Assembly (NCBI GenBank): GCA_031414955.1
Contig: JANOQV010000115.1
Location: 1-23,036 of the forward strand
Source of the DNA: Pedosphaera sp.
GTDB lineage: Bacteria > Verrucomicrobiota > Verrucomicrobiia > Limisphaerales > SIBH01
Length of the DNA stretch: 23,036 nt
Direction of reading: 5' to 3'
Shown: positions 1 through 22,975 of the stretch, in pieces
Layout: every line of letters starts with the position of its first letter
Position numbering within the stretch: position 1 is the first letter of the stretch
Position numbers and translations under genes: made by a program
Notes under the pieces: generated by a model
Databases searched by the model: none
What the model was told of the DNA's origin: nothing
What the model saw: only the letters and a program-made list of their open reading frames with translations

Positions 1-123
1 GAGCAGCTTGGCGTGGCCTTTGGGGTTGTTGTCCAGGACGTGGTGGACGTTCTGGAGGTGGAGTTGGAGGGTGGCCTTGGCGATGTCCAGGCCGGCATAG
101 ACGGTCGGTTTGTTTTCGTTCAT
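1..123 (-). CDS. IS110-family transposase/recombinase, N-terminal 41 aa (runs off the window edge)
   Basis: ATG at 123..121 opens MNENKPTVYAGLDIAKATLQLHLQNVHHVLDNNPKGHAKLL with no stop before base 1. 'YAGLDIAK' matches the G-x-D-x-x-K first-catalytic-Asp motif of the DEDD RuvC-like domain of IS110 enzymes, and 'NNPKGHAKLL' resembles the usual N-x-x-x-G helix start. Absent from the ORF track because it is truncated. Confidence 0.9.
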   Translation of the reverse strand, partial: MNENKPTVYAGLDIAKATLQLHLQNVHHVLDNNPKGHAKLL

Positions 124-360
124 GGTTTTACGGGTGTTCGAGCTCTGACTTGCACATTCGAGCGCGGCGCGCCGGAGGGCGGGACGGCTCCATCAACGGT
201 TCGAGTACGGACACGAAGGCCCGGGCGGCTCTGGCTCCCCAACGAACGCGGAAGCGTTCCAGAGGGCAACGAGCGCGCCCGCGCCGCCGCCTTCCCCCCT
301 GCAGGGGGGAAGGCGGCCCCATCTTCCCGTCCGGCTTTCAGCCGGACAAGGAGGATGGAA
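124..360 (-). ncRNA. Putative bridge RNA (target-binding loop ~280..223, donor-binding loop ~206..142, two 5' hairpins)
   Basis: Target loop: outer stem 223-231/271-280, inner hairpin GAACGC-4nt-GCGTTC at 244-259, single-stranded guides TTGCCCTCT (269..261) and TTGGGGAG (242..235). Donor loop: inner stem GAGC/GCTC (160-163/187-190), guides ACCGTTG (200..194) and GTGCAAG (155..149). The last is complementary to the element's own end CTTGTAT with two G-T wobbles. Transcript ends are approximate. Confidence 0.75.
286..317. repeat. Perfect 32-bp palindrome inside the IS leader
   Basis: GCCGCCTTCCCCCCTG|CAGGGGGGAAGGCGGC is exactly self-complementary. Confidence 0.95.
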
Positions 361-363
361 AGC

Positions 364-369
364 AACATA
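364..369 (-). promoter_or_regulatory. Candidate -10 box (TATGTT) of a junction promoter completed on IS circularisation
   Basis: TAnnnT hexamer just inside the CT core. IS110 circles are known to join a -35 from the right end to a -10 in the left end. The right end is outside the window. Confidence 0.45.
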
Positions 370-395
370 CAAGAGGAGGCACGTTTTGCTCAGGA

Positions 396-446
396 TTCCC
401 CTCTCCCTGACCCTCTCTCCGCTCCTTCGTCGTGGGGAGAGGGGAC
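396..446. repeat. REP-like palindrome of the CCCTCTCCC...GGGAGAGGG type
   Basis: TCCCCTCTCCC (397-407) is the reverse complement of GGGAGAGGGGA (435-445). A second pyrimidine arm, CCCTCTCTCC (411-420), can pair with the same purine arm. It resembles a dispersed extragenic repeat common in GC-rich bacteria; copy number cannot be seen from this window. Confidence 0.7.
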
Positions 447-457
447 TTGTGTAGATA

Positions 458-504
458 CCTATGGCTCACGCCGTGGGCTACGCTCTGTCGCGCCTCCGGC
501 GCTG
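458..504. repeat. Second REP-like unit (double hairpin)
   Basis: CCTATGGC-tcac-GCCGTGGG (458-477, two G-T pairs), then GCGCC-tcc-GGCGC (490-502). It looks like a decayed copy of a 'cccacggctcacgccgtgggcta...' repeat type recalled from PVC/Acidobacteria genomes. Confidence 0.55.
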
Positions 505-644: not shown

Positions 645-3308
645 ATGTTCCGGTTACAAACCAAAAGCCAGCCCACCGCCCGCACCCTGAGTGCGGTGCT
701 GCTGCTCTGCGCTCTCGTGTCCGGGTTTGCCGCCGCGAAGCCGAAGGTTGCCAGCCTGGTTGTGCAGCCTGCGCGCATTGAACTCACCGGCGCCCTGGAC
801 GAACACGGCCTGTTGGTCATGGCGCTCACCGCCAACGGCGAATCGCTGGATGCCACCAAGCTGGCCGGGTTCACTTCCTCGAATCCAAAGGTCGTCACGG
901 TCTCGTCCGCAGGAATCTGCCAGCCGCGTTCAGATGGAATTGCGGACGTGCGGGTGAGCTACGGCGGGAAAACAGCGCGCATCGCCATCGTGGTCACGAA
1001 CAGTGCAGTCAAACCGACGCCGTCTTTTCGCCAGGATGTTTTGCCCGTGCTGACGAAGACCGGATGCAACGCCGGGGCCTGCCACGGCAAGCTGGCCGGG
1101 CAGAACAGTTTCAAGCTCTCGCTGCGCGGTTACGCGCCGGAATGGGACATCGACTGGCTGGGCAAGGAGCTTCGCAGCCGGCGCATTGATTACGCCTTTC
1201 CCGAGGAGAGCCTGCTCATCCAGAAGCCGCTGGGCCGCGTGCCGCACGAGGGCGGCGTGCGCTTCGCCGAGGGGTCGCGCTATCACCGCGCGCTGGTGGA
1301 TTGGATCCAGGCCCGCGCGCCCGGCTCGGACACAAATGAAACGGACGCCGTGCGCATCGAGGTGCTGCCGGGAAACCGCACGATGAAGCCGGGCGAGACG
1401 CAGCAATTGCTGGTGCGGGCGCATTACCGTGAGGGCCGGACGCGCGACGTGACGTGGCTCACGCAGTTCTTCGCCAATGATGAAGCGACGCTGACGGTGA
1501 CACCGGAGGGCGTGGTCAAGGCGCTGCGCTCGGGGGAAACGGCCGTGCGCGCCCATTTCCAGGGACAGGTCGAAGTGGTGATGTTCACCATGCCCTACAC
1601 GAACAAGGTTTCGGCGGGCGTGTTCGCGGCGAAGAACAACGCCATCGACGCGCCCGTGATGGCGAAGCTCCAGGCGTTGCGCATCCCGCCGTCCGCGCCT
1701 TGCGATGACAACACCTTTATCCGACGCGCCACGCTCGACGCCACGGGCACCCTGCCCTCCCCGGACGAGGTGCGCGCCTTTCTCGCCGACAGACGCGCCG
1801 ACAAACGCGCGCGGTTGGTGGATGCCCTGCTGCAACGGCCCGAATTCACCGACTACTGGACGTTGCAACTCGCCGACCTGTTGCAGAACCGCAAGGAGCG
1901 CGACCACGACGTGCGCGGAACCAAAGGCGTACGCTCATTCCATGCGTGGCTGCGCGCGCAGGTGGCCACAAACCGTCCGTGGAACGAACTGGCGCGCGAT
2001 GTCATCACGGCGACGGGCGATTGCGTGACGCACCCGGAAGTCGGCTATGCCATCACGCTCATCGGCGAGAAGAAGGCCGAGGAATCAGAGCTTACCGACA
2101 GCGTGGCGCAGGCGTTTCTCGGCAGTCGCATCGGCTGCGCGAAGTGCCACAACCATCCGCTGGAGAAATACACCCAGGACGATTACTACCACTTCGCGGC
2201 GTTCTTCTCGCGCGTCTCGCTCAAGCGCGTGGACCCGGCCGACGGTGCCACGGCCTTGCTCCCCGAGACGAAGGACGAGACGGAGCAGAAGAAGAAACTC
2301 GCCGAGATGGAGAAGGCGCTGGACGAACTGGAACCCACGCTGGAGAAAGTGTACGGCGACGAATTGGAGACCGCGAAGAAGAAAGTGACCGATCAGAAGA
2401 AGAAACTCGACGAGGCCACCAAGCGCCTGGCCCAAATCAAGACCGAGAAGAAGCCCGGCGCGCTCCAGCCACGCACCAAGAAGATGATGGCGCCGCAGCC
2501 GCTCGACCGCTCAACGGTGGAGACTACCGGCGGCGAAGACCCGCGTGCGCAACTCGCCCAATGGATCACCGACCCGCAGAACAAGCACTTCAGCGGCGCG
2601 ATGGTAAACCGGCTCTGGAAGCATTTCCTGGGCGTGGGATTGGTCGAGCCGGTGGACGATCTGCGCGCCAGCAATCCGCCGACCAACCCCGAGTTGTGGG
2701 ACGTGTTAAACCGCGAGTTCGTGACGCACGGCTACGATCTGAAGCATGTCATGCGACTGATTCTGAATTCCCGCACCTACCAGATCAGCTCGGACACGCT
2801 GCCGGGCAACCAACTGGATCGGAAGTTCCACTCGCACTATTACGCGCGCCGCCTGCCGTCCGAAGTCATCAGCGACGCCATCAGCGCAGCGACGGACGTG
2901 CCGGATGAATTCAAGGGCTATCCCATCGGCACGCGCGCGGTGCAACTACCCGAGCCGGGCGTGGCGTCGTATTTCCTCACGCTCTTTGGGCGTTCCGATC
3001 GCGTGACAGCCTGCGCCTGCGAGCGCAACGGCGAAGTCACCCTGCCCCAGTTGTTGAACCTCCAAAACGGCGATGATCTCTCGAAGAAGTTCCGCGACGA
3101 GAGCGGGCGGCTCGCCGCTTTGCTCAAGGCGGGCGATGACAAGATGCTCACCGAGGAACTCTTTCTGGCCACGGTGGCGCGTGCGCCGCGCGCCAGTGAA
3201 TTGGCCGAGGTTCAGCGCAGCCTCGCGGACGGTGGCACTCGCGAGGAGGTTTACCGTGATCTGTTTTGGGCGTTGCTCAACTCGAAGGAGTTCGCCTTCA
3301 ATCACTGA
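645..3308 (+). CDS. DUF1549/DUF1553 (PSCyt2/PSD1) domain protein with Ig-like (Big_2-type) domains, secreted, 887 aa
   Basis: Signal-peptide-like N-terminus (LSAVLLLCALVSGFAAA). Family motifs: 'SFRQDVLPVLTKTGCNAGACHG', 'NNAIDAPV..KL..L.IPPS..CDD.TFIRRATLD.TG.LP', 'AQAFLG.RIGCAKCHNHP', 'VNRLWKHFLG.GLVEPVDD', 'P.NPEL', 'ILNSRTYQ', 'CACER', 'DLFWALLNSKEFAFNH'. Confidence 0.92.
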   Translation: MFRLQTKSQPTARTLSAVLLLCALVSGFAAAKPKVASLVVQPARIELTGALDEHGLLVMALTANGESLDATKLAGFTSSNPKVVTVSSAGICQPRSDGIADVRVSYGGKTARIAIVVTNSAVKPTPSFRQDVLPVLTKTGCNAGACHGKLAGQNSFKLSLRGYAPEWDIDWLGKELRSRRIDYAFPEESLLIQKPLGRVPHEGGVRFAEGSRYHRALVDWIQARAPGSDTNETDAVRIEVLPGNRTMKPGETQQLLVRAHYREGRTRDVTWLTQFFANDEATLTVTPEGVVKALRSGETAVRAHFQGQVEVVMFTMPYTNKVSAGVFAAKNNAIDAPVMAKLQALRIPPSAPCDDNTFIRRATLDATGTLPSPDEVRAFLADRRADKRARLVDALLQRPEFTDYWTLQLADLLQNRKERDHDVRGTKGVRSFHAWLRAQVATNRPWNELARDVITATGDCVTHPEVGYAITLIGEKKAEESELTDSVAQAFLGSRIGCAKCHNHPLEKYTQDDYYHFAAFFSRVSLKRVDPADGATALLPETKDETEQKKKLAEMEKALDELEPTLEKVYGDELETAKKKVTDQKKKLDEATKRLAQIKTEKKPGALQPRTKKMMAPQPLDRSTVETTGGEDPRAQLAQWITDPQNKHFSGAMVNRLWKHFLGVGLVEPVDDLRASNPPTNPELWDVLNREFVTHGYDLKHVMRLILNSRTYQISSDTLPGNQLDRKFHSHYYARRLPSEVISDAISAATDVPDEFKGYPIGTRAVQLPEPGVASYFLTLFGRSDRVTACACERNGEVTLPQLLNLQNGDDLSKKFRDESGRLAALLKAGDDKMLTEELFLATVARAPRASELAEVQRSLADGGTREEVYRDLFWALLNSKEFAFNH

Positions 3309-3311
3309 GCC

Positions 3312-4583
3312 ATGACCCATTGCTCCTTGCCGTTGCCAATGCTGCTCCTCGTGCTTTGCGCCCAGGCCATCGCTCTCGCCGCTGCGAATCAAACCGAGTT
3401 CAAGTTCGACTTCGGTTCCGGCCAGGCGGCGACGGGATGGACCAAGGTTCCGCCAACCGCGAAGCACACCAAGGAGTCAGGCTACGGCTTTGATTTGGAT
3501 TCTAAAGCGGACGCAATCAGCCGGGGAGGGAAGGATGCCCTGCGCGGTGATTTCGTCACGAGCGCAAGGCCGTTCTTCTTTTCCGTCACGGTTCCGGAAG
3601 GCAATTACAACGTGACCATCACGCTCGGCGATGCGGAGGGCGAGTCGAGCATGACGGTGAAGGCGGAGTCGCGCCGGCTGATGCTGGAGAACGTAAAGAC
3701 GGCGCGCGGCCAGTTCCAGACACGCACCTTCACGGTCAACGTCCGCACGCCGAAGATTTCCACCGGCGGGGCGGTGAAGCTCAAGGAGCGCGAGCGCGAC
3801 GTGCTGCACTGGGATGACAAGCTGACGCTGGAGTTCAACGGCGCGCGTCCGTGCGTGGCGGGACTGGAGATCAAACGCGTCGAGGATGCGACGACGGTCT
3901 TTCTCATTGGTGATTCCACCGTGACCGATCAGCCGCGTGAGCCGTGGAACAGTTGGGGCCAGATGTTGACGCGCTTCCTCAAGGCCGGCGTGGCGGTCGC
4001 GAATCACGCTGAGTCCGGCGAGTCGATTCGCAGTTCACTCGGCGCGCATCGGCTGGACAAGGTGTATGCGGAGATGAGGAAGGGCGATTACGTCCTCGCC
4101 CAGTTCGGTCACAACGATATGAAGTCGCGGGACGCGAACGCGCTGGCGACTTACAAATCCGACCTCAAGCAGATCGTGGCGAACGTGCGGCAGCGCGGCG
4201 GCACGCCGGTGATTATCACTTCGATGGAACGCAAGGCCGGCGTGGAGCGCGACACACTCGCGGGCTACCCCAACGCCGTGCGCGAAGTGGCCAAGGAAGA
4301 CGGCGTGGCCCTCATCGATCTGCACGCCACAAGCAAGGTGCTCTACAAGGCGTTGGGCACAAACCTGGGCGCGGCCTTTCAAGACGGCACGCATCACAAC
4401 AATTACGGCAGCTATGAACTGGCCAGGTGTATCGCGGAGGGCATCAAGGCGAACAAGTTGGGGCTGGTGAAGTTTCTTGCGGACGATGTGCCACCCTTCG
4501 ATCCGGCGCATCCTGATGCGGTGGAAACCTTTGGCGTGCCGGCCAGTCCGCTGGAATCCACAGTGAAGCCGGATGGCAACTGA
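3312..4583 (+). CDS. Rhamnogalacturonan acetylesterase-like SGNH hydrolase (CE12) with N-terminal beta-sandwich, secreted, 423 aa
   Basis: Signal peptide, then an N-terminal 'FKFDFG...GYGF...FSVTVPEGNYNVTITLGD' domain. SGNH blocks: IGDSTV (catalytic Ser), SWGQ, NHAESGES, QFGHND, DGTHH (Asp-x-x-His). Starts 3 nt after the upstream stop. Confidence 0.88.
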   Translation: MTHCSLPLPMLLLVLCAQAIALAAANQTEFKFDFGSGQAATGWTKVPPTAKHTKESGYGFDLDSKADAISRGGKDALRGDFVTSARPFFFSVTVPEGNYNVTITLGDAEGESSMTVKAESRRLMLENVKTARGQFQTRTFTVNVRTPKISTGGAVKLKERERDVLHWDDKLTLEFNGARPCVAGLEIKRVEDATTVFLIGDSTVTDQPREPWNSWGQMLTRFLKAGVAVANHAESGESIRSSLGAHRLDKVYAEMRKGDYVLAQFGHNDMKSRDANALATYKSDLKQIVANVRQRGGTPVIITSMERKAGVERDTLAGYPNAVREVAKEDGVALIDLHATSKVLYKALGTNLGAAFQDGTHHNNYGSYELARCIAEGIKANKLGLVKFLADDVPPFDPAHPDAVETFGVPASPLESTVKPDGN

Positions 4584-4654: not shown

Positions 4655-5986
4655 ATGATCGACATATCACTCAGCGCGAAGAAGAGCCAGTTCTGCAACG
4701 GCTGGTCGCGGCGTGATTTCATCCGCGTGGGCGCGCTGGCGCCGTTTGGTCTTTCGCTCGGGCAGGCGCTCGCACTGGAAAAGTCATCCTTCCCGGCCCG
4801 CTCGAAGAACGCGCGCGCCAAGTCGGTCATCCTGGTCTTCCTCGGCGGCGGCATTTCGCATCACGACACGTTTGATCTGAAGCCCGACGCGCTGGAGGAA
4901 ATTCGCGGCAAGTACAAAGGCATTCCGAGCAAGATCACCGGGCTGCAAGTCGGCGAGTTGCTGCCCAAGCTGGCCGGCACGATGGACAAGCTGTGCCTCG
5001 TCCGCTCGCAGCAACACGGCAATGATCACCACGAGACGGCGACGAACTGGGTGCTGTCGGGCAAGTTTGGTTCGCCGTTCGGTGATCATCCCGCCATGGG
5101 CGCGGTCGTCGCGCAGCAGACGGGCTTCCAGGGAATTCTTCCGCCTTACGTGGCGGTGCCGCGCAACCCGTCGTTCACTTGGGAGTTGGGCAAGAGCGCG
5201 TGGCTGGGCGGGCGCTATGAGTCATTCAAAGGCGGCGATCCGAATGCGAAAGATTTCAAGGTACGCGACCTCACGCTGCCCAAGGACAGGACGGCGAAGA
5301 CGCTGGAACGGCGCGCGTCGCTGTTGAAGGCGGTGGATTCGCTGGCGGCCCGCGTGGAAGGCAACGACCAGATCGCCACCTACGATGAGTTTCACCAAAA
5401 GGCGGCGCAGATGGTGTTGTCGCCCGAGGCGCAATCGGCCTTCGACATCGACAAGGAATCGGAGAAGCTGCGCGACACCTACGGGCGGCACGAGTTCGGA
5501 CAGAGCTGCCTGCTCGCGCGTCGACTCGTCGAGAAGGGCGTGCGCTTCGTGACCGTGAATTACGCGGGCTGGGATCATCACGCGAAGATTTTCGAGAGCC
5601 TGGATAAGAAGCTGCCCCAGTTCGACCAAGGGTTCGCCGCGCTGATCAACGACATGACGGAGCGCGGCTCGCTCAATGACACGCTCGTGGTCTGCATGGG
5701 GGAATTTGGCCGCACGCCCAAGGTCAACAAGGACGCCGGGCGCGATCACTGGGGCCACGCGGGCGTGATGCTTTTCGCGGGAGCGGGGGTGCGCGGCGGC
5801 AAAATCATCGGCGCGACGGACAAGACGGGCAGCCAGGTGATCGACCGTCCGGTGCGGCCCGAGGATGTGTGCTGCACGGTGTACGAGGCGCTCGGCATCG
5901 ATCCGCACAAGGAACTCCGCACGCCGGAAGGCCGGCCCGTTTCGATTCTTGATCAAGGCGCGACGATTCATGAGCTTTACTCGTAG
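4655..5986 (+). CDS. DUF1501 domain protein (alkaline-phosphatase/sulfatase-like fold), twin-arginine N-terminus, 443 aa
   Basis: 'FCNGWSRRDFIRVG' Tat-like motif. Family motifs: 'KSVILVFLGGGISHHDTFDLKP', 'FGQSCLLARRLVEKGVRFV', 'GWDHH', 'GEFGRTP', 'GRDHW', 'GATD'. Confidence 0.93.
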   Translation: MIDISLSAKKSQFCNGWSRRDFIRVGALAPFGLSLGQALALEKSSFPARSKNARAKSVILVFLGGGISHHDTFDLKPDALEEIRGKYKGIPSKITGLQVGELLPKLAGTMDKLCLVRSQQHGNDHHETATNWVLSGKFGSPFGDHPAMGAVVAQQTGFQGILPPYVAVPRNPSFTWELGKSAWLGGRYESFKGGDPNAKDFKVRDLTLPKDRTAKTLERRASLLKAVDSLAARVEGNDQIATYDEFHQKAAQMVLSPEAQSAFDIDKESEKLRDTYGRHEFGQSCLLARRLVEKGVRFVTVNYAGWDHHAKIFESLDKKLPQFDQGFAALINDMTERGSLNDTLVVCMGEFGRTPKVNKDAGRDHWGHAGVMLFAGAGVRGGKIIGATDKTGSQVIDRPVRPEDVCCTVYEALGIDPHKELRTPEGRPVSILDQGATIHELYS

Positions 5987-6746
5987 GCGGCCGCTTCTTG
6001 CGCTGGCCGTGGCGTTGGTCGCCCACGTCCATTCCGCAGAGAAGAAGGACGAGAAGACCAACGAGCTTCCGAGAATCACAATGGCCCTGCCCTTTGCCGT
6101 CGTGGCCGGGGAAACGAACCAGATCATCATTCGTGGAACATCCCTGACGAATGCGACCGCGATTCGCTTTCCCTCGTCAGAGCAGAAGCCCGTGGTGGAA
6201 ATCAGCGCGCGCGGCAAGGCCAGCGTTCCCGACAAAGGCGACCCGAAAAAACTCGGCGGCACCCAACTGGACGTGCGGTTGTGGCTGCCGTCGGATTTCG
6301 CACCGGGCGATCTGCCCTTCGTGGTGAGCACACCCGAAGGCGAAACGAACACGAACCTGCTTCAGGTCGTGGCCAAGACGCTGCTACTCGACGAGCAGGA
6401 ACCCAATCCCGGTTTCCGCAAGGCGAACCCAGTCGGTGTGCCGCAGGTTATCCGCGGGGTCATCGGGGAAGCCAGCGATGTGGATGTGTTTAGCTTTAAG
6501 GGCAGGGCCGGACAGCGGGTTACCATCACCACGAAATCAACACGCTACGGTTCATCGCTCGATCCGATTCTGAATCTCTACGACGCGAAGGGCCATGTGC
6601 TGGCCACAAGTGATGACGCCATGGGATCAGAGGCGCGCATCACGGCGGTGTTGCCGCGCGAGGAGAACTATTTCTTCGCCATCAACGACGCACACGATCA
6701 CGGCGGTGCGACCCATGCCTATCTGGCGGAAATCCGGAATGAGTGA
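5970..6746 (+). CDS. Pre-peptidase C-terminal (PPC) domain protein, secreted, ~258 aa
   Basis: I moved the start to the in-frame ATG at 5970 (MSFTRRRPLLALAVALVAHVHSA, a signal peptide; overlaps the DUF1501 gene by 17 nt). It has an IPT-like N-domain, then 'EQEPN', 'G.I....DVDVFSFKGRAGQ', 'LDPILNLYDAKG..LA..DD', which are typical PPC motifs and typical of DUF1501/DUF1553 neighbours. Confidence 0.82.
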   Translation: MSFTRRRPLLALAVALVAHVHSAEKKDEKTNELPRITMALPFAVVAGETNQIIIRGTSLTNATAIRFPSSEQKPVVEISARGKASVPDKGDPKKLGGTQLDVRLWLPSDFAPGDLPFVVSTPEGETNTNLLQVVAKTLLLDEQEPNPGFRKANPVGVPQVIRGVIGEASDVDVFSFKGRAGQRVTITTKSTRYGSSLDPILNLYDAKGHVLATSDDAMGSEARITAVLPREENYFFAINDAHDHGGATHAYLAEIRNE

Positions 6747-6851: not shown

Positions 6852-9800
6852 TCACGGCTGGGTTTGCGCCTCACCACTGGCAGGCACGTCGATTTTCATC
6901 GCACCCGCCGGAAGTTCGGTCACGGTGGTTTTCCCGCCCGGCCAGCGCACAGCGAGTTGGCCGCCCGTAGCGGCCAGCACGGAGACGGGGGAATCCTGGG
7001 AAAGCCAGCCCGAGCCGGCGTGAATTTCACGGGCCGGGCCGAACCGCTGGCCGTCGCCCAGACGAATCACCGCCCCGATGCCGTCAGGGTTTCCCGGCCG
7101 TCCGGAGAGCCGCACGCGCAGACCAGGCTTCGCGGAGACATTGCGATACAGTTTCGTTTCCCCTCGGTGCTGGCCGAGGGCGAGATCAACCCGGCCATCC
7201 TGATCGAAGTCGGCCACCGCCGCGCCGCGCTGTTCTCCGTAGAGAGTGATGCCTGAGCGCTCGCCTGGGACCACGGCAAAGCCGCCGCGTCCATCGCCGG
7301 TCAGCAGCAAGCCCCGGCCCGCGTCGTGCCGCGAGACGCCGGAAGCGGTGCCGAAGAAATTCTGGGCGAGAAAGATGTCCTCGCGGCCATCGCCATCAAA
7401 ATCCGCCACGCAGACCCCGAAGGCGGGCGCAAACTGCGCCTCGTCGGGGAGCCGAACCACGGCGAAATGATCGCCGCGATTGAGCAGCACGGTGGTGGAA
7501 AGCCAGTTCGCCTCCAGCACCCTGGCCGTGGGCGCCCGCTCGCCGAGGATCTGTTCGACGGTGCTCTCGCTCCAGGATTTCCAGGTGGGAAAGCGCGGGC
7601 GCAGCCAGGGCATCCCGCGCAGCGCCGCGTCCAGAGGGATTAACGGCGCATAGCCCTGCATGGTCGGTTCGTAGTGCGCCTCGATCATCTCGACCCAGCC
7701 ATCGCCGTCGAAGTCGCCGTGGTAGAGCCGCAGCGGTCGGGCGCGAAATATTTCCCAGGCCGTGTTCTCGCCCCAGTTGCCGGCCACGAGATCCATGCGG
7801 CCGTCGCCATCGAAATCACCCGCCGTCACGCTGGTCCACCAGCCGGTTAATTGGTTGAGAGTTGAAGGTGGAGGGTGGAGAGCCGGACCTGAAATAAGCG
7901 GATTCCAGGTCGAGAAATTGCCGCGCTCATTTCGCAGCAGACGCAGCGGACCCCAGTCGCACGCGAGCACCAAGTCCGGATCGCCGTCGCCATCCAGATC
8001 ACTGAAGACCGCGCCGTTCACCAGCCCGATACCGGCGAAGGTTTTGGCGTTGGCCGCATCCGGGACAAAACCTCCGGCCCGCCCCTTGAACAACAGCGAC
8101 GAGGCCGGCTCAGGATAACGGCCCGGCACCACTCGTCCGCCGACGAACAGATCGAGCGCGCCATCGCCATCCACATCCGCCATCGCGAGCGGGCCGGTGC
8201 TGGAATCCTGGCTGGGAAACGCGTCGAGCACTCGTTGCGAAGAAAGATCGAACTGGCGGACGACGCTGCCGGAGCCAAGCCCGTCTTCGTAGTTCGAGGA
8301 GCCGGCCAGCAGCACCAGGTCATTCGAGGCGCGACGCCAGCCCAAGACCGCCGTCTGATCGCGGGCGACGTCCTGGTCGAAGGGCGCGCCGGTGCGTTTC
8401 TGGAAACCGCCCCGCTGATCATTTTGAAACACGGCCAGACGGGTGCCCTTTCCACTCGAGATGATCAAATCGTCCCAGTGGTCGCCGTTCAGATCCACCC
8501 AACTGAGGCCGGGACCGACCGGACAAAGTTTCTTCGTCAGCATTGGTTGGCGGAGAAAATCATCGAACGACTCCCGGGCGGACCGGGGCCCAAGCGCGGC
8601 GCTGAGATCCTGGAACATGGTCGGGGGGGTAAAAGTCTGTCGCCCAAGTTCGGTTGGTTCGTCGGATTGCTCGACAACGCAGAGGTGATTGGGCGGCACG
8701 TCCTCCACCACCGTTCGCTGGCCATCGCGCCAGACCACTTCGAGACGCAACCGGTTCGTCAGCGAGCCAGCGGCGAACACGCGCATCGCGTCATCGCAGG
8801 AGAGATAACGGCCGCCGCAGATCATTTCCTGCGACTGGACCACAGGCCCGCCGGTGATGGTGATCTTTGCGCCGATGCCGCGCGTGTTCGGCGCACGTCC
8901 CTTCAGACGCACGGCCACGCGTGGGGCTCCTGAATCATTGCGATACAAGGTCACGGGCGCGTTCAAGTTGCACACGATGACATCCTGATCACCGTCACCA
9001 TCCAAATCAGCGAGAGCCATGCCTTGCGAGACTTCGCGGGCGGCGAACCCCCATTCCGCCGACACGTCGGCGAAGCGGAGGTTGCCCAAGTTACGAAAGG
9101 CAACATTGGGCGGGGCCAGGCGCGGGAAAAGTTTACGCAAGCCAAGTTGATCGAGGTTGGAAAGTTTTCGGGCCGTCTTGTGTCCCTCGATTTCGCGCAG
9201 CACGTCCGCATTCATCCCGTCCCGTTCAAACCCGTTCGAGACCAGCAGGTCTTCATAGCCGTCCAGGTCGACATCCAGGAAGATGGGCGTCCAGGCCCAA
9301 TCCGCCGCCGGGAGGCCAGCGAACTGGGCGATCTCGGCAAAGGTCCCGTCGCCACGGGCGAGGTGCAGCGTGTTGCGCGGCGTTTGCCTGCGGATGTCTG
9401 CGTCAGGAAGACCAACTTGCTCCAGGCCATCGTCGGATCGCTGGGTCAGTCGCCGGCGGTGATCACGGCTCAACATGTCCACCACAAAGATGTCGAAGTG
9501 CCCATCCCGATTTAGATCCGCCACGTCGAGGCCCATGGAGGAATACGAAGTCTGGCGGAGGGCGGTGGAGGGAAGCGCCCTGAATCGGCCTCGTCCGTCA
9601 TTGATCCAGATTCGATCCGGCGACTTGAAGTCGTTGCACACATAGATGTCGGGAGTGCCGTCGCCGTTTAAGTCGCGCATCATTACCGACAACCCCCAGT
9701 CGAACGGCGGTTGACGCAAGGACCGACCAGTCTCGTCGAGAAAAGCACCGTTGGTGAAGGACAACGGAGTGAAGCGCCCTCGGCCGTCGTTGAGCAGCAG

Positions 9801-10595
9801 CAGATCCGGCTCGCCATTCTCATCCGAGACGAAAGTCGGTTGTCCGTTCTGTATTTGAGTCCTGAACTCAAAGCGCTGGGCCAAGTCCGGATCGGTGACA
9901 GGGCGACCATTGACCGAGGTCACTTCAGGGCGACCCTCGACCAGGCGGAGTTTGAACTGCGTGTTGGGCTGGTCGCGCAAGGTCACGGCACGGTAGTTGG
10001 CCAGATACAGATCGAGGGTACCGTTGCCATCGACATCCGCCAAAGCCATCGAGGTTGAGCCGCGTCCGCCGTTCAATACGCCGGAGGGCGAAACGGTGAA
10101 ATGCCCGCGCCCGTCGTTGAAGAAAACATGGGTGCCACCCGCCACTGAACTGACGATGAGATCCAAATCGCCATCCCCCTCCAAATCGGCGAGCGCCGTT
10201 CCGCTGGCATCGAGATTGGGACAAGCGACGCCCGCAGTCGCGGTCACATCTTCAAAGCGCCAGCCTCCCAGGTTGCGATACAGCACATTGCCGCCATCCA
10301 GGCCGCAGAAATAGAGATCCACCCGTCCATCACCATCCACGTCACCTGCCGCCACGCCAGAGCCGTTGAGCAGAATCTGGTTCGTGAGGTGGCGCTGCGC
10401 GGTCAGCCGGTTCTGAAAAGTGATGCCGGTAAAATTCGAGCCGACCGCAGTGAATCCGACCTTCCCCGCCGCCACTGGAAGCAGGGTGAAACTGCCGGGC
10501 GGGCGGACGGCGGCATTAGATGCGACCGCTGCAAGCAGCAGCAGAATGCAAATCGTTCCGGAGCGAGCCGCCGGTGGAGGCAGTTCGCCCAACAC
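6852..10595 (-). CDS. FG-GAP/VCBS-repeat + ASPIC/UnbV protein (CRTAC1-like), ~1250 aa; start codon uncertain
   Basis: More than a dozen Ca-binding D-x-D/N-G-D-G-x-x-D repeats (e.g. GDVDGDGRVDL, ADLDGDGDQDV, GDFDGDGRMDL). Two UnbV-like segments: 'VRLKGRAPNTRGIGAKI..GGRYLS' and 'VRLSGRPGNPDGIGAVI..GSGWLSQ'. The start is placed at GTG 10595 (or TTG 10592), downstream of the terminator and just before the hydrophobic stretch ICILLLLAAVASNA. Confidence 0.88.
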   Translation of the reverse strand: MLGELPPPAARSGTICILLLLAAVASNAAVRPPGSFTLLPVAAGKVGFTAVGSNFTGITFQNRLTAQRHLTNQILLNGSGVAAGDVDGDGRVDLYFCGLDGGNVLYRNLGGWRFEDVTATAGVACPNLDASGTALADLEGDGDLDLIVSSVAGGTHVFFNDGRGHFTVSPSGVLNGGRGSTSMALADVDGNGTLDLYLANYRAVTLRDQPNTQFKLRLVEGRPEVTSVNGRPVTDPDLAQRFEFRTQIQNGQPTFVSDENGEPDLLLLNDGRGRFTPLSFTNGAFLDETGRSLRQPPFDWGLSVMMRDLNGDGTPDIYVCNDFKSPDRIWINDGRGRFRALPSTALRQTSYSSMGLDVADLNRDGHFDIFVVDMLSRDHRRRLTQRSDDGLEQVGLPDADIRRQTPRNTLHLARGDGTFAEIAQFAGLPAADWAWTPIFLDVDLDGYEDLLVSNGFERDGMNADVLREIEGHKTARKLSNLDQLGLRKLFPRLAPPNVAFRNLGNLRFADVSAEWGFAAREVSQGMALADLDGDGDQDVIVCNLNAPVTLYRNDSGAPRVAVRLKGRAPNTRGIGAKITITGGPVVQSQEMICGGRYLSCDDAMRVFAAGSLTNRLRLEVVWRDGQRTVVEDVPPNHLCVVEQSDEPTELGRQTFTPPTMFQDLSAALGPRSARESFDDFLRQPMLTKKLCPVGPGLSWVDLNGDHWDDLIISSGKGTRLAVFQNDQRGGFQKRTGAPFDQDVARDQTAVLGWRRASNDLVLLAGSSNYEDGLGSGSVVRQFDLSSQRVLDAFPSQDSSTGPLAMADVDGDGALDLFVGGRVVPGRYPEPASSLLFKGRAGGFVPDAANAKTFAGIGLVNGAVFSDLDGDGDPDLVLACDWGPLRLLRNERGNFSTWNPLISGPALHPPPSTLNQLTGWWTSVTAGDFDGDGRMDLVAGNWGENTAWEIFRARPLRLYHGDFDGDGWVEMIEAHYEPTMQGYAPLIPLDAALRGMPWLRPRFPTWKSWSESTVEQILGERAPTARVLEANWLSTTVLLNRGDHFAVVRLPDEAQFAPAFGVCVADFDGDGREDIFLAQNFFGTASGVSRHDAGRGLLLTGDGRGGFAVVPGERSGITLYGEQRGAAVADFDQDGRVDLALGQHRGETKLYRNVSAKPGLRVRLSGRPGNPDGIGAVIRLGDGQRFGPAREIHAGSGWLSQDSPVSVLAATGGQLAVRWPGGKTTVTELPAGAMKIDVPASGEAQTQP

Positions 10596-10629
10596 GTTTC
10601 GATTTGCCTGACGATGGGGAGTCACTGGC

Positions 10630-10664
10630 AAAAAAAGAGACCGGGATTTGCATCCCGGTCTCTT
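10630..10664 (-). terminator. Rho-independent terminator of the giant gene
   Basis: Minus strand: AAGAGACCGGGAT-GCAA-ATCCCGGTCTCTT-TTTTT, i.e. a 13-bp perfect stem, a GNRA loop and a U-run, 17 nt after the TAA at 10684..10682. Confidence 0.92.
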
Positions 10665-10681
10665 GTGCATAAGGACTTCGG

Positions 10682-13600
10682 TTACGGCGTGCGCACCTTC
10701 CAGAACTTCTTGGGGCCGAGGCGCGTGTCGTAGATGAACGGATTGATCGGACTCGGGACATCGGTCCACGGACCCGCGACCTCATCCGCCCATTGCAGGA
10801 TGCCACCGCTCCAGGGGAAGGAGAACTGGCCGACCACCTGGGCCGTGGCGCTGACGGCACTGGCACCGGGGATGTAAACGATGACTCGGTAATCGGCCAC
10901 CAATCCCGGCGGCGGCACCGTGACGAAGGTGGGGCCGTTCTGGCCGATCAAGTTCTTCCAAACGCCGCCCAAGTTTTGCTGCCATTGATAGGCGACCTGA
11001 TTGTAGTCGCCATAGTCATTGGTGGCGGTGAAGCCGACGCTCAACGAAACGTTGAGCGGGCTGCTGCCCTGGCTGATGTCCACGCTGTCGATTTCCCAGT
11101 TCGGCGTCGCACCCTTGGTGTTGGAGTCATTGCCCGCGTAGAATTCGATGCGGATGGTGGTTCCAGCCGGATGGTAGCCCAGATCAGCCGTGCTGGTGAT
11201 CTTCGTGCCGATGCCATGCCCGGCCGAGGTCGCGGTCCAGGACGGCGATCCAATCGCCACCGCCGTGCCGTTGTAAGGATTCTGGGTGAAGGCACTGCCC
11301 GCCACCGTGTTGGTCGGACCACCATTAATGCTCACCCGGAGTTGGCCACCATCCCAAGCCGTGCCGTCGAACTCGAAGCTGTAGCGATGCGAGAACGACA
11401 CCACCACGTTGCCGGCCGCGGTCGTCGTCACCACCGGACTGGCCAGCTTGGAGACGTTGCCATGCCCGTTGTCCGGACCCTGGCCGTCTTCAATCCACGA
11501 CCCGCTGCCACCGCTGTAAGCCCAAGGCGCGTCGTAGCCCTGCGGCGTGCTGACCGTGAACCCACCGTCGCCGCTGTTGAAGTTCTCGGACAACAGCGGA
11601 ACCGGAGTGGCCGCCACCGGGAACAACTGACTGAGCGGCTGTTGAGTGATAGTGATAGAGGCACCCATCGGATCGGCCAGCGAGGATAGGAAGCCGCCAT
11701 TGATGGTCGAGAGCGTGTTCGGATCCTGCGGACTCGAGGTGCGCTTGACCGCCACCTGGCCGTAGTCGCCGCCGACACCTTCCTTGTAGAGCAGTTCCAT
11801 GTAGTAGCTCTGACCGGCCACGAGGCTGATCGAGGCGGAGGCATGGGCGGAGAAGGCGGTGCAGCAAGCCAGCTCCTCAGTCAGCGTCACCAGATTCGCC
11901 GGCGAACTGTCCGTGCTCAATTGCAGCCGTGAGGCGTCATCGCTGCGCAGATAGAACGTGTAGTTCGTGGTCTGTTGCGGCACGAAGTAACCCGAGAGAC
12001 GTGCGCCGTAGCCTTCACGAGCATCCGACGGATACGCGCGACGGGAATCGCCCCGGTCGATGTGCTGGGTGAAGTCCGGGCTATTCGGATAGCTCGGATG
12101 GCCGGTCAGGATGGAGACATCATTGCCGCCGCCCGTGTTGTAGGCCTCGAAGAGCAGGGAACCGAGGCCGACCGTCCAGGTGGTGACTTGGAAGTTGGTT
12201 CCACCGAGCGGGTTGCCCGCCAAATCCGTCAGGAAGGCGTTGCCTATGGTGACGTTGTACACCGTGCCCGGGTTCAACGCCGCCGTCGGAAGAGTCACCG
12301 TGCGGGCATCACCACTCAGGATGGGCGTGCCGAGCACAATGGGAGAGCCATTGGTATCGGTGACCTCGTAATTGCCAACCTCAACCGCCGGGCCACTCGC
12401 CATGGCCTCGTTGAAGGTGATCTTGATGGCATCCTGCGAACGCACGCCGCGCGCGCCCAAAGCGATGGGAACCACGGTGTCCGTAATTACGGATAGCGTG
12501 GCATTGGTGCTCGTGGTCTTCGCGCCGATGATGCTGGCCTGCACGCTGAAGACGGCTCCGTTGTCCAGCAAGGTCAGGTTGGGCGTGGTGTAGCTGGGAC
12601 CATTGGCACCGGGGATGTCGATGTTGTCACGACGCCATTGGTAGCAGATGGGCAGGTCGTTCGGACTGACGAACGTCGAGGTGAAGGTCACGGTGTTGTT
12701 CTCCGTGGTGGTCGTATCGACCGGTTGGAGGCCGAGGTTCAAAGCACCGCCAATACCGCCAGGCGCAGCTCCGGAACCCATCATGGTGCCCGGAATCGGG
12801 TCGGTAGCATCCGAGGTCGGGGCCGGCTGACCTTGGAGGCGGGCCGCCGTGAAGGCGTAATCGCCGCCCGTGCCTTCCTTGTAAACCATTTCCATGTAAT
12901 AGCCCTGACCTGCCACCAGTGTGATGGGCGCGGTCGGATGACCAGCGAAGGCGCCACAGCAGCCGGCTTCCTCCTGGACGATGACCTTGCCTGCGGCGCT
13001 GGGGCCGTTGGTGTTCATGTAGAGGATCGAGGAGTCATCGCTGCGGATGTAGAAGATCCAGTTGCCCGAGGTCGGCGGGATGAAGAGACCGCGCATCCGT
13101 GCGCCATAGCCTTCCACGCTGTCATTCGGGAACACCAGACGGCTGCTCATGCCGCTGATGTGGTAGATCGCGGTGGGGTTGTTCGGGAAGCGCGGATCAG
13201 CCAGCAAGGTGTTGCGGATGTTGTTGTCGCCAGTGCTCAGGCCGCTGAACAGACTGAACTCGACGCCGCCGCAGGGGCTGGCCACCCAGGAACTGACGTT
13301 GGTCACGACGCCGTAGTCGAAATCAACCAGGGACAAACCGACTGGATCGGTTGGATTTCCGACCAAGTCCAGTTGGAAGCCGATGTCGACGGTGTAAATC
13401 GTGCCTTCAAACATTGGACTAGCGAGGTTCAAGACCACGTTCGAACCGGCGTAGGCGGCATCAATGACCGTGATTTCGTTGTCCGAGGGATCCGTGATGC
13501 GGTAGCTGCTTTCTTCGGCCGCCGTCCCTTCGGTCATCAACTCACTCCACGTCAGGTAAATCTTGGTGAAGGTCTCATCCGTCCTAACGCTGACCAGATA

Positions 13601-16600
13601 GGGGCGGAAGATGTCTTCGCTGACGTGCTGGGTGGAGACAACGCTGAGCAGCGTCGCGCCCGGGGTGCGGGCCAAGCAACTGTAAACATCGCCTTCGTTG
13701 ACAACTTGCAGGGGCGGCGTGGTATGGCTTGGGCCCGTGGCTCCAGCCATGGCGACACCGTTGGAGTACCACTGATAGAGCAGCGGACGCACGGCACCGT
13801 CGAAGGATGTCACCGTGGCGGCGACGGTCAGGGTCGGTGATTGGTTCACGATCCGAGTGTACTCAGGCTGGAGGTCGGTCGTAATGACCAAACTAAGCGC
13901 ATCCGGGTTGGCATACACCGCTAGGTAATCCGCGGGAATAGGATTAATGCCATCGGCTGAAAGCGCCGCATAGTCGCCGCCGCCGCCTTCCTTCCAGAGC
14001 AACTGGTAGGCATAGCGATTGCCAGCGGTGAGCGGGAGCGCCGGTCCAGTGTTACGGAAAGTGCCCGAGCAGCAAGGCTGAGCACCAATGTCCTGCAAAT
14101 CTCCCGAGTTGTCAGTCAAAGCACCGCGGAGCAAGGCATCATCGTCATTGTTGATGCTGAATTGGTAATTCCCAGACACGGGCGGGATCATCAGACCGCT
14201 GATGCGACCACCATAGTTCCCGTGGGAATCGTCGGGATACGCATTGCGACTGTTCGGCGTAGTCATGTAGAAGCGTTCACGCGGGTAATGGGGATAGAGC
14301 GGATTGCTCAAGAGCATGGGGATAGTTGTCCCGCCACTGTCGCCGTACGTTTCCATCAAGGCGAAGCCAGGCGAAAACACCCAGCCGGAGAAGCTCACGG
14401 TGGAATTGGCCGCGACGGGGTTCGGAATACCTGCGCGATCCGCCACGTTGCTGAGGACGATGGTGTAGCGCTCACCCTGGGTCTGCGGTTCGGTGTGCAG
14501 CACCACGTTGGTGTTGTCGCGCAACAGAACACCGTAGAGATTCTGCGTCACGCCCGCGCTGTTGGTGATGGTGTAGTTTGCCAAGGTCGTGGCGCTGGAA
14601 ACCTGAACGGGTTCATTGAACACGATGGTGGCATTGGTGAAGGAATCACTGCCGCGCGCGCTCAGAATAGCTGGCGCAACCTCGTCGCTGATCACCGTGA
14701 GCGTGGCCACCGCGCTGATGGCGCTGCTGAACTCGTTGGCCACAATGGCAAACCACTGACTGCCATTGGCAGAGCGGTTGACCACGGGATTGTAAGTCTG
14801 GCTGGTCGCGCCGGGCACGGCGACAGTGTTGCTATACCACTGCACGGTGTAAGCCGGCGTGCCGTCGAGGCCGATGTAGAATTTGGCGGCGAACAGCTCG
14901 TTGACCGTCTGGTTGACCGGCTGCTCAGTGATGAGGATCGGTCCGAGGGTGTTGAAGAACGAGGTGGGCGGGCAGCCGATGGAATAGTTCGTGGCGAACA
15001 TGGAGCGCGGAATGGGCAACGTGCCGTTAACGATGGCCGGACCGCCGGGAAGGCGCACCGCCACGGAGACGTTATCACCACCGCCACCTTCCTGAGTGCG
15101 GGTCTCCATGTAATAGCTACGACCCGCCACCAGGGCAATGGGTGCGGTGACTGGAACCACCGTGCCGCCGCTGGTGATGTATTCGCGGTAGCCGTTCCAG
15201 GCCGGCTGCGACGCGATGAGCACCTTGTTCGCGGGCGAAGCGTCGGAACTCAGGAAGATCTGGCTGTTGTCATCCGCCGCCAGGGCAAACTGGTAATTGC
15301 CATTAGCCGGCGCAACGAACACGCCGTAAATCCAAGTGCCGTAGTTTTCGGTGTTGGGCAGAAGGAAGGTATTGCCTTCGGCGATCGTCCCGCGCGCGCT
15401 CGTGGTGTATTCCATGCGCTCGTTGATGGTGGACGAACTGAACGTGGGAGTGGCGCAGGCGGCGATGGCCGCGTTGAGCAAGCCCAGGCTGTTGGCGCCG
15501 TTGTAGATCTTCACGGTCAAGCCGGCGGCCGCATTGAGTCCCGCGCCATGCAGGAAGCTCTTGGAGGTCGGATTCGGGGCGAGGTTGATACTGGCGGTAT
15601 CCTGCACATTGGCCGCGGTGACGGTGTAGGTGTTGCCAAGAACAAAGGCCGGCGTGGTGGCCAACTGGATGAGGTTCGAGCTGGTTCCAACGTAACTGAC
15701 CGAGTTCACGCTGATGCCGCCGTCCAGAGTATAGTTGGCGGGATTCAGGGCTGAGGCACCCATGGCCACGGTGAAGGTGAGACGGACGCCATTCGGATTG
15801 AGGCGGCTGTCCGCGGAGAGCAACACCGGGGCGCTCGAAGGAACCAACTCGAAGCCGGCGATACCGGTGCCGTCGGGGTCGCCACGATTGACCATGGTGA
15901 CAGTGATTCGGCCAGCGGCGCCACTGTTCACACCATAGAACCGCACGTAGTTGCAGACGTCGCGGGGGCCGCCCGGGCTGGTGTTCACGCCAGGGATGAA
16001 GGTGCCGCCGAACTGATGCTGCGAGGTGATGTAGAAGGTCTGGCCGTTGCAGGAGAAGTCGCCGATGCGACCGTCGCCATTCACGTTGAGCAGGACAATC
16101 ACATCCCAGAGGCCGGGGCGCACGTCTTTGAAGGTATAGGTGTTCAGGCGGTTCGCGCCGTTGGCCTTGCTGATACCCTTCATCATCTGCTGATCGCCCG
16201 TGACGACGGGCGACTGGTCATTGTTCCAACTGTCGTTGGCATCATAGACCAGGGTGGTGGTGGTGGGCACGCCGTTGGAGGCATTGAGCGGCCCGGTCAC
16301 ACCGTTGAACACGCCGCTGTTGTCGATGTTGTTCCAGTTGGGCTGGGCCACCACGCCAGCGACGGTGGTCGGGGCGAGGGTGGAGCAGCCAGGGGCGCAA
16401 TCGCCACGGCCGGTAAAGCTGGCGGCGAGCTGAATGGCCGGCGAACCGGGCAGAAGCTGGAAGCCGGCGATGCCGACGCCGTCCGGATCGCCGCGGTTGA
16501 TGAAGCTCAGTAGGATCTGATTCGCGCCGTTGGCGGGCACGTTATAGAACCGGACGTAATTGCCGGTGTCGCGAGTAGCGGCCGCACTGCTGTTCGTGAT

Positions 16601-22807: not shown

Positions 22808-22975
22808 AGGTTTATGGTTGTTTGACGACGATTGCATTTGGGTCAGTGGGATTGGTATCCGAATTGTCACCTGATCGTCAATGCTTTTGTGGCGACTCCG
22901 CTAACATTCTTTTTGCAGTTCTTGCCCTACGCCTCGGCACTAAAACACTCAGAGCCGGTCTGAAAATTCGGAGGC

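Follow-up and report, generated by a model that had tools for sequence, protein, structure and literature searches.

An IS621-type IS110 left end in a Pedosphaera genome carries a predicted bridge RNA complementary to the BoxC repeat core

The window (the whole stretch of DNA analysed, 23,036 nt) is the entire contig C115 of a Pedosphaera sp. genome of 6.55 Mb and 62% GC, and its minus strand from 373 to 1 holds the left end and the first 41 codons of an IS110 element. We read this as the left end of an intact IS621-type element whose predicted bridge RNA is complementary to the core of the BoxC repeat, (G)CCCT-CT-CCCCA, and which likely inserts at that core through RNA-guided recombination of CT cores (probability about 0.9, judged from the sequence and that of its relatives).

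The element and its recombinase

Contig C134 opens with the first 141 bases of the window and holds the remainder of the element. The features that define the left end are as follows.

1..123, minus strand: IS110 recombinase, codons 1-41 (full protein 320 aa, continuing on C134)
124..371, minus strand: left non-coding end, the predicted bridge RNA, with two 5' hairpins, a target loop and a donor loop
372..373, minus strand: left CT core, placed from the sequence and an alignment of nine left ends

Provided that C115 and C134 are joined, the element measures 1241 bp from core to core, with a left end of 248 nt and a right end of 26 nt past the stop codon. The right junction on C134 reads ...ACCGTTG-CT-CCCCACGAC, so that a CT core is present at both junctions, with the caveat that the left (C115) and the right (C134) junction may come from different copies. 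In runs X1 and X2 the contig depth was 16-22 over the element body and 12-16 over the unique flank, which fits more than one copy, these depths not being copy numbers.

The recombinase scored 174 bits against NF033542 (IS110; cut-off 140) and also exceeded the cut-off of PF02371. Residues D13, E55, D97, D100, and S236 aligned to D11/E60/D102/D105/S241 of IS621; by this alignment the catalytic residues are intact, and the DEDD RuvC domain together with the C-terminal serine domain fits the IS110 family and its IS621-like group. The closest named relatives of the protein are from Verrucomicrobiota. A search for the donor-loop pattern among viral contigs returned no matches.

The remainder of the window carries large genes on the plus strand at 645-3308 (which we take to resemble a DUF1549/DUF1553 protein), 3312-4583, 4655-5986, and about 6009-6746, and on the minus strand at 6852-10769 (presumably an FG-GAP repeat protein by resemblance). 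On the minus strand, 10682-22870 is an open frame of 4062 aa that contains 606-nt repeats together with low-complexity modules of extracellular type.

Predicted bridge RNA and donor loop

The predicted bridge RNA folds with a z-score of -5.56, none of 200 shuffles being equally good, and two-sided changes were found at 26 of its 70 predicted pairs (nine relatives compared). In a search against Rfam, no bridge-RNA family matched, and Acido-Lenti-1 alone passed the cut-off. The hairpins at 286-317 and 322-356 are strong, lie 5' of the target loop and both show compensatory changes in relatives; one of them is a perfect 32-nt palindrome. The elements of the donor side are listed below.

149..154, minus strand: right donor guide TGCAAG, pairing with CT-TGTA with one G:U wobble
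192..200, minus strand: left donor guide ACCGTTG-AT, set against the right-end ACCGTTG-CT with a mismatch at the first core base
233..234, minus strand: putative handshake position CC, directly after the right target guide (placed by reference to PMC11208158)
364..369, minus strand: predicted -10 box TATGTT of a circle-junction promoter, 17 nt from TTGCTT (right end, on C134)

The donor guides ACCGTTG and TGCAAG are complementary to the joined ends ACCGTTG-CT-TGTA. The donor is nearly invariant among the relatives collected, and its support is therefore complementarity, not covariation. The G:U wobble in the right donor guide has a likeness in IS621 (G161:dT12), and the AT, not CT, at the end of the left donor guide recurs in 68 of 115 parsed elements among the matches listed, which makes the mismatch at the first core base a conserved one. 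Joined ends would rebuild the predicted promoter TTGCTT-17-TATGTT; among the matches listed, TTG stood at the predicted register in 19 of 40 clusters, at -1 in eight, at -2 in three, and at +1 to +3 in none. By analogy with IS621, strand exchange would allow the first C of 233..234 to pair with the G at donor position 7. This C is demanded by the parser, and its conservation is thus no test; the handshake base of the donor loop paired with target position 7 in 25 of 45 cases among the matches listed (22.2 under shuffling, p 0.08), which is no significant covariation.

Target guides and their sites in relatives

The target loop carries two guides.

261..268, minus strand: left target guide TGCCCTCT, 8 nt after a CGT linker (base 269 belongs to the linker)
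235..241, minus strand: right target guide TGGGGAG, 7 nt, reading CT-CCCCA (base 242 is loop linker)

A preliminary description of this DNA had placed the left guide as TTGCCCTCT at 269..261 and the right guide as TTGGGGAG at 242..235 (both minus strand), and these strings were found at those coordinates. It had further proposed that the loop is aimed at the CCCTCTCCCC repeats, a proposal that the analysis supports.

Relatives were gathered from GTDB contigs (80 loci), from 400 genomes of the same order (30 loci; 26 of the 400 gave a match at E 1e-60), and from metagenomes (at least 120 loci). Among the matches listed, the donor-loop anchor was present in 157 rows, of which 151 were kept after six duplicates had been taken out. 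Parsing yielded the left and the right target guide for 115 of the 151, representing 61 clusters at 90%; the 36 unparsed rows were left out. Junctions and cores were found by donor-like search words, so that conservation of core and donor is partly built in, and the relatives are kin, not independent rows.

Among the matches listed, guide and flank agreed at left positions 1-7 in 20, 24, 46, 73, 76, 79, and 80 of 84 distinct junctions, compared with 19.2, 21.6, 21.0, 40.8, 48.3, 52.7, and 47.5 when the pairing was shuffled; positions 4-7 are thus strongly read, position 3 partly, and position 2 not detectably. On the right side, positions 1-6 agreed in 58, 55, 55, 52, 40, and 14 of 58 junctions among the matches listed (shuffled: 30.6, 32.4, 24.1, 33.5, 13.9, and 13.1), the sixth position (RT6) being at chance. 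The pattern was unchanged with a single row per 90% cluster (46 left and 40 right, among the matches listed). The fifth right position (RT5) depended on the register: among the matches listed it agreed in 36 of 36 junctions with a 7-nt right guide (shuffled 11.7) versus 4 of 22 with a 6-nt guide, the register having been set from the RNA alone, though the table had been inspected beforehand.

In IS621, a C-G-U linker (C47-U49) precedes the 9-nt left guide and G-U precedes the right guide (PMC11208158), whereas the window element has C-G-T followed by only 8 nt and G-T followed by 7 nt; the behaviour at the guide edges is explained by this loop register. The suggestion in the preliminary description that the element tolerates distal mismatches is accordingly not upheld, as the distal TT matches at chance (20 of 84 and 24 of 84, among the matches listed) and the first T sits at the position of the IS621 linker base U49. 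Given the 7-nt right register with RT5 at 36/36 and the unread distal T's, the site read by the element, as deduced from these comparisons, is therefore (G)CCCT-CT-CCCCA, 12-13 nt with a geometry of about 5+2+5. Wobble pairing was considered as a rescue of guide positions 1-2 and rejected: outside the BoxC classes, position 2 matched in 11 of 32 cases (19 with wobble) among the matches listed. T may wobble with C targets in the pyrimidine-rich BoxC, and an invariant guide base is no covariation test.

Individual relatives illustrate the covariation of target-loop guides with insertion sites, which is the behaviour that characterises the IS110 group. In L003, a guide reading GAGG is accompanied by the flank CCTC, a compensation at a single base; the flanks of L006 are a perfect TTGCCCT-CT-CCCCAA; and in L004 (79% protein identity) both guides have switched, the site being GCTA-CT-TCGGAA.

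Several guide classes hit this one repeat, since L095, L116, L145, L155, L130, and L148 aim elsewhere in the BoxC core or beside it, their targets being CTCCC-CT-CAACG (loop), GCACC-CT-CTCCC, and AAATC-CT-CTC/CCC. One closed genome holds five copies of a relative (L009-L012, L072), partly in tandem arrays, all in repeats of the type TTCCA(A/G)(C/T)-CT-GCCGT that fit the guide.

The BoxC repeat and its MITE-like host element

The repeat next to the element was located at the following positions.

396..444, plus strand: complete BoxC/PIT-type motif with pyrimidine tail, CCCTCT arm, loop, and GGGGAGAGGGG arm (compare Table 1 of PMC4666352)
374..462, minus strand: left part of a MITE-like compound repeat (178 bp), with an 18-bp terminal inverted repeat at 445-462
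374..380, minus strand: 'site 2', the left target GCCTCCT, occupied here; it forms the pyrimidine tail of the MITE-like element's second BoxC
433..446, minus strand: 'site 1', GTCCCCT-CT-CCCCA, empty in the window, differing at one base from what the guide reads
458..503, plus strand: Acido-Lenti-1 repeat arm (RF01687, 45.7 bits against 37)

Two near-matches to the guides had been pointed out beforehand in this palindrome, TTCCCCTCTCCCT at 396-408 (plus strand, 11/13) and GTCCCCTCTCCCCA at 446..433 (minus strand, 12/14), and both are present. The palindrome had also been taken for multi-copy, as indeed it is: CCCTCTCCCC occurs 148 times in the genome versus 4.0 expected under an order-3 Markov model, with 100 overlapping hairpin hits. 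Inside the 23-kb window, the 10-mer with one mismatch occurs four times versus 2.32 expected, a number reached in 20 of 100 shuffles and hence not above chance, and the literal 13-mer TTGCCCTCTCCCC has no occurrence in the genome. Its casting as an unrelated repeat family held as far as a multi-copy family is concerned; the family is not an unnamed one. The consensus of the BoxC/PIT/TM intrastrand triplex repeat is CCCTCTCCC(C)-loop-GGGGAGAGGG-NNN-GGGTGAGGGG (PMC4666352), and its features, namely a C-rich arm, a short loop, a GGGAGAGGG arm, and a third purine block, are present at 396-444 and in many genome copies such as CCCTCTCCCCTCAACGGGGAGAGGGCCGGGGTGAGGGG, whose layout agrees letter for letter with that of the BoxC/PIT motifs of E. 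coli in Table 1 of that paper. By sequence, the repeat is the known BoxC/PIT motif. Compared with the BoxC of PMC4666352, it is a CT-CT-tailed variant built twice into the 178-bp MITE-like element, with a likeness to triplex repeats seen at the level of sequence. According to PMC4666352, E. coli BoxC copies have no transposase remnants nearby.

The safe extragenic harbour that the preliminary description saw in this repeat describes most copies and not all: 91 of the 148 CCCTCTCCCC sites lie outside predicted genes and 57 inside (crude gene caller), in a genome that is 84.7% coding. The fifth right base A narrows the 148 sites to 19 CCCTCTCCCCA sites, of which 17 are outside predicted genes and 9 in the 178-bp MITE-like element.

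The MITE-like element offers 'site 1' (GTCCCCT-CT-CCCCA) and 'site 2' (GCCTCCT-CT-CCCCG). It has 18-bp inverted ends, an exact 10-bp direct repeat at C225, no coding capacity, and four left and four right halves in the genome bin; of nine sequences in the genome resembling its ends with at most three mismatches, eight are in the MITE-like element and the ninth is on C257. Copies are inserted in the loops of Acido-Lenti-1 hairpins, and bases 463-472 of the window are probably its 10-bp target duplication. The nesting thus has three levels: the IS110 element in BoxC, BoxC in the 178-bp MITE-like element, and the latter in an Acido-Lenti-1 hairpin loop. Contexts of the MITE-like element were seen at 374-472 of the window and on C99, C134, C141, C225, and C249, and another IS110 element (L228) adjoins the same MITE terminal repeat.

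Site choice might instead be set mainly by the hairpin or triplex shape of BoxC, with base pairing secondary, comparable to the stem-loop gate of ISPpu10, for which a target stem-loop requirement is reported (preprint 10.64898/2026.03.19.712850). Among the matches listed, 25 of 30 BoxC-class elements with both junctions do have a hairpin partner or tail motif. The covariation, however, proceeds base by base and includes switches to unrelated repeats, a hairpin partner is already present at 133 of the 148 available sites, so that occupied sites are not enriched beyond availability, and the window site is in the tail, not in a hairpin arm. We consider a leading role of shape very improbable.

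Junctions of the window element

The occupied flank GCCTCCT-CT at 380..372 (minus strand) matches the left guide at 5 of 9 positions, as had been described. Its true mismatches are at positions 3 and 4; among the matches listed, elements sharing this guide have G at position 3 in 10 of 20 (loose) and C at position 4 in 18 of 20 (strict), and the window left flank, by breaking the usual rule at position 4, counts against guided insertion. It had also been predicted that CCCC would follow the right-end CT, and C134 does read CT-CCCCA. The proposed rebuilt site GCCTCCT-CT-CCCC consequently stands in its right half, whereas its two halves probably belong to two insertions.

Besides the window junction, which is spanned over 347-457 by a contig of X2 (111 nt without a difference, of which just 27 belong to the element), a further left junction was found at site 1 in runs X1 and X2 of one study, joining 371 to 438 and skipping 66 bases. 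The flank of this junction departs from the window sequence beyond base 465, and it agrees with none of the eight end contexts in the bin. C134 thus has an insertion at site 1 as seen from its right junction, and X1 and X2 have one as seen from a left junction. All three junctions known for the element lie in the MITE-like element, and the right flank starts with CCCC under every reading.

The balance of the sequence evidence tips slightly towards the window left junction and the C134 right junction being different insertions, because complete MITE copies have one unit, a second left junction exists at site 1, and the 10-bp duplications are not direct repeats. Specifically, a C115-C134 join would give a two-unit repeat, while each of the two complete intact MITE copies has a single unit, and the 10-bp duplications of the window left half and the C134 right half are reverse complements of each other. 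Counting against two insertions are the equal numbers of left and right MITE halves (four each in the bin), an A private to the window unit that complements a private T in the C134 hairpin, and the frequency of 141-nt contig overlaps (86 of 579 ends). If the right side in the window were the usual site-2 CCCCG, a U:G wobble would be needed at RT5, a position at which relatives are Watson-Crick in 36 of 36 cases among the matches listed.

A single locus would have required insertion into GCCTCCT-CT-CCCCA of a two-unit repeat, with a perfect right match and two left mismatches. The 141 identical bases shared by C115 and C134, the fit of the rebuilt right side at 5/5, an A following in 5 of 13 empty GCCTCCTCTCCCC sites, the equal numbers of left and right MITE halves, and the one complementary private variant all agree with it. 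We nevertheless regard a single locus as unlikely, since the two-unit copy is absent among the two complete intact copies, the duplications are mismatched as direct repeats, X1 and X2 show another left junction at site 1, and the MITE unit of the window differs at 7 of 66 positions from that of C134, whereas the C134 unit is identical to those of C225 and C249. A single locus, if true, would alter the junction history alone and leave the mechanism unchanged.

On C99 (26446-26623), the 10-bp duplications differ on the two sides, the one at the left of the window equalling that at the right of C99 and the one at the left of C99 equalling that at the right of C249, suggesting that either the assembler or recombination exchanged flanks across the 178-bp repeat. 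The match counts for less because the 10-mer of the window is also among the commonest hairpin loops (3 of 92). Across 13 genomes of the family, synteny yielded one orthologue of the C134 gene and eight of the window gene, with the upstream neighbours on other contigs, a pattern that favours neither one locus nor two for C115 and C134.

The same bin contains a second intact element (element B, L001, C204:1273-2491, minus strand; 66% protein identity) with the same left guide and a right guide reading CCCCG. On its left side, the flank CTCGCAACC-CT corresponds to the target of a different guide class and the end starts with GGTATG, not TGTATG, which looks like flank replacement. A decayed third element lies at C80:12332-12869 (minus strand), with a truncated recombinase carrying an internal deletion and target-loop remains that resemble the AACC-CT-GGG class.

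It is conceivable, and in our estimation quite unlikely, that the window join is real and secondary, arising from a flank swap between copies, a half-match reaction, or delivery of a circle by the RNA of a sibling element. The clade shares one donor sequence, and half-match recombination is reported for IS621 (preprint 10.64898/2026.08.31.748434). The right flank of element B fits its guide (CCCCG) while its left flank fits at 1/5 and is the exact left target of the other guide class (GCAACC-CT), whose repeat has 25 copies in the genome; the decayed relative on C80 resembles the AACC-CT-GGG guide class; and L125, with the guide TCCTCT, occupies the same GTGCCTCCT site. Against this, no reciprocal product turned up (the fifth copy of GTCCCCTCTCCCC belongs to an ordinary BoxC), no element with a TCCTCT guide was found in the bin, the B junction CT-GGTATG fits a plain deletion with microhomology equally well, and simple tolerance suffices, as 19 of 84 left flanks among the matches listed disagree with their guide at one or more of positions 4-7. 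Separate insertions remain the preferred account of the two junctions.

Guide switching within the clade

A quick tree was computed from 65 clade proteins and five outgroups among the matches listed. BoxC-type guides fill two separate starred groups in it (16 of 21 and 20 of 21 rows, among the matches listed), the window element being inside the former beside L004 (79% identity), which aims at GCTA-CT-TCGG, and guides of the AACC-CT-GGG type surround those to the BoxC loop (TCCC-CT-CAAC) in the tree. At least five changes of guide label are forced by starred branches among the matches listed. An AU test on a 51-row tree, from which the long row L142 was left out, rejected the grouping of its 26 BoxC-type rows into one clade (p-AU 6e-5, among the matches listed), with labels taken from the guide sequence after the first tree had been inspected. 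Judged by these sequences, the clade switched guides repeatedly, the direction of the switches not being given by the tree. The starred subclade is mostly BoxC-aimed (16 of 21), and the window element therefore inherited its aim; from sequence, BoxC targeting is inherited in this subclade and re-targeting is frequent at the level of the clade. Independent re-targeting, which the preliminary description had attributed to this very element, thus applies to the clade and not to the element. L007, a record titled Klebsiella pneumoniae (metagenome bin), is a member of the clade; the same locus is found as L036 in G355, which belongs to the order of the window, and the title is probably wrong.

A wider scenario would have a clade centred on Verrucomicrobia with a fixed donor and a target loop that hops among host repeats, in which co-resident elements redirect circles and recombine BoxC/MITE copies. 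We put it forward as an improbable conjecture, prompted by two discordant left flanks in one genome; if true, cross-guiding would explain the fitting right and ill-fitting left flank in both intact elements and would offer a mechanism behind the genetic instability that has been described for BoxC sites, near which no transposase was found.

Relation to known systems

Bridge recombinases have been described for IS621 and ISCro4/IS622 (PMC11208160, PMC11208158, and the preprint 10.1101/2025.05.14.653916; PDB 8WT6 and 9T56). The protein studied here is distant from both, the likeness in DEDD and serine recombinase domains having E-values of 3.4e-26 and 2e-28, and shares with them a long left end with target and donor loops, a CT core, a predicted circle-junction promoter, and insertion in an extragenic repeat. 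Unlike IS621, it targets BoxC and not the E. coli REP sequence ATCAGGC-CT-AC, and its natural geometry is about 5+2+5 instead of 7+2+2, with an 8-nt left guide whose distal base is unread and a 7-nt right guide. By analogy with IS621, the element would be excised as a circle, whose joined ends would form the promoter TTGCTT-17-TATGTT that drives the predicted bridge RNA; the donor loop would grip ACCGTTG-CT-TGTA and the target loop about 5+2+5 bases of the BoxC core, and the DEDD/serine recombinase would exchange strands after CT. On this reading, the window junction is an imperfect-match event in a BoxC tail.

Insertion of IS110 elements in REP-type repeats is established (PMC1525189), and Durrant et al. 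(2024) binned natural guides with target motifs and noted longer right guides (PMC11208160). In 2006, four of four copies of ISRm19, an IS110 element of Sinorhizobium meliloti, were recorded in a BoxC-like repeat, CCCCTCATCCG...GGCAC-CT-TCTCCCCGC...GCGGGGAGAAGGG (PMC1525189, supplement S6), with the site GGCAC-CT-TCTCCCC; the authors, writing before bridge RNAs were known, called this target REP (PMC1525189). ISRm19 resembles the window element in family, BoxC-like target, CT core, and RNA-like left end, and differs in inserting three bases further left in the repeat, in the host phylum, and in its ends. An IS4 element, ISRm22, is listed in the same S. meliloti repeat (PMC1525189, supplement). 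In the portion of Supplementary Data 2 of Durrant et al. (2024) considered here, CCCTCTCC appears 177 times among natural IS110 targets, many times as CCCTCACCCCAACCCTCTCCC, which is BoxC; the rows listed take the first CT as their centre (AACC-CT-CTCCC), which puts them two bases to the left of the core of this element, and the donor 14-mer of the clade, ACCGTTGCTTGTAT, had no occurrences in that portion. ISPpu9 and ISPpu10 of Pseudomonas putida are likewise IS110 elements; they insert with a CT duplication into a palindromic repeat of many copies, always at one position in it. The repeat is a different one, and a stem-loop requirement is shown for ISPpu10 (PMC1525189; 10.64898/2026.03.19.712850). 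A search of openly available papers for BoxC or triplex with IS110 (triplex: since 2024) and for Verrucomicrobia with bridge RNA returned none that names the link.

IS110 elements in BoxC-like repeats are thus already in print as data (ISRm19; the supplement of Durrant et al. 2024), the mechanism and IS110 targeting of REP are already known, and the element is a modest variant in guide geometry.

Significance

BoxC/PIT, a repeat with a name and no function, is tied here to a clade of RNA-guided transposons whose guides can be read; by hand count in Table 1 of PMC4666352, 11 of 23 E. coli K-12 BoxC motifs hold CCCT-CT-CCCCA on the reverse strand. The predicted bridge RNA, as a natural one with shifted guide geometry of about 5+2+5 and strictness at RT5, may be useful for work on the specificity of bridge recombinases, for which the clade offers a ready series of natural reprogramming events.
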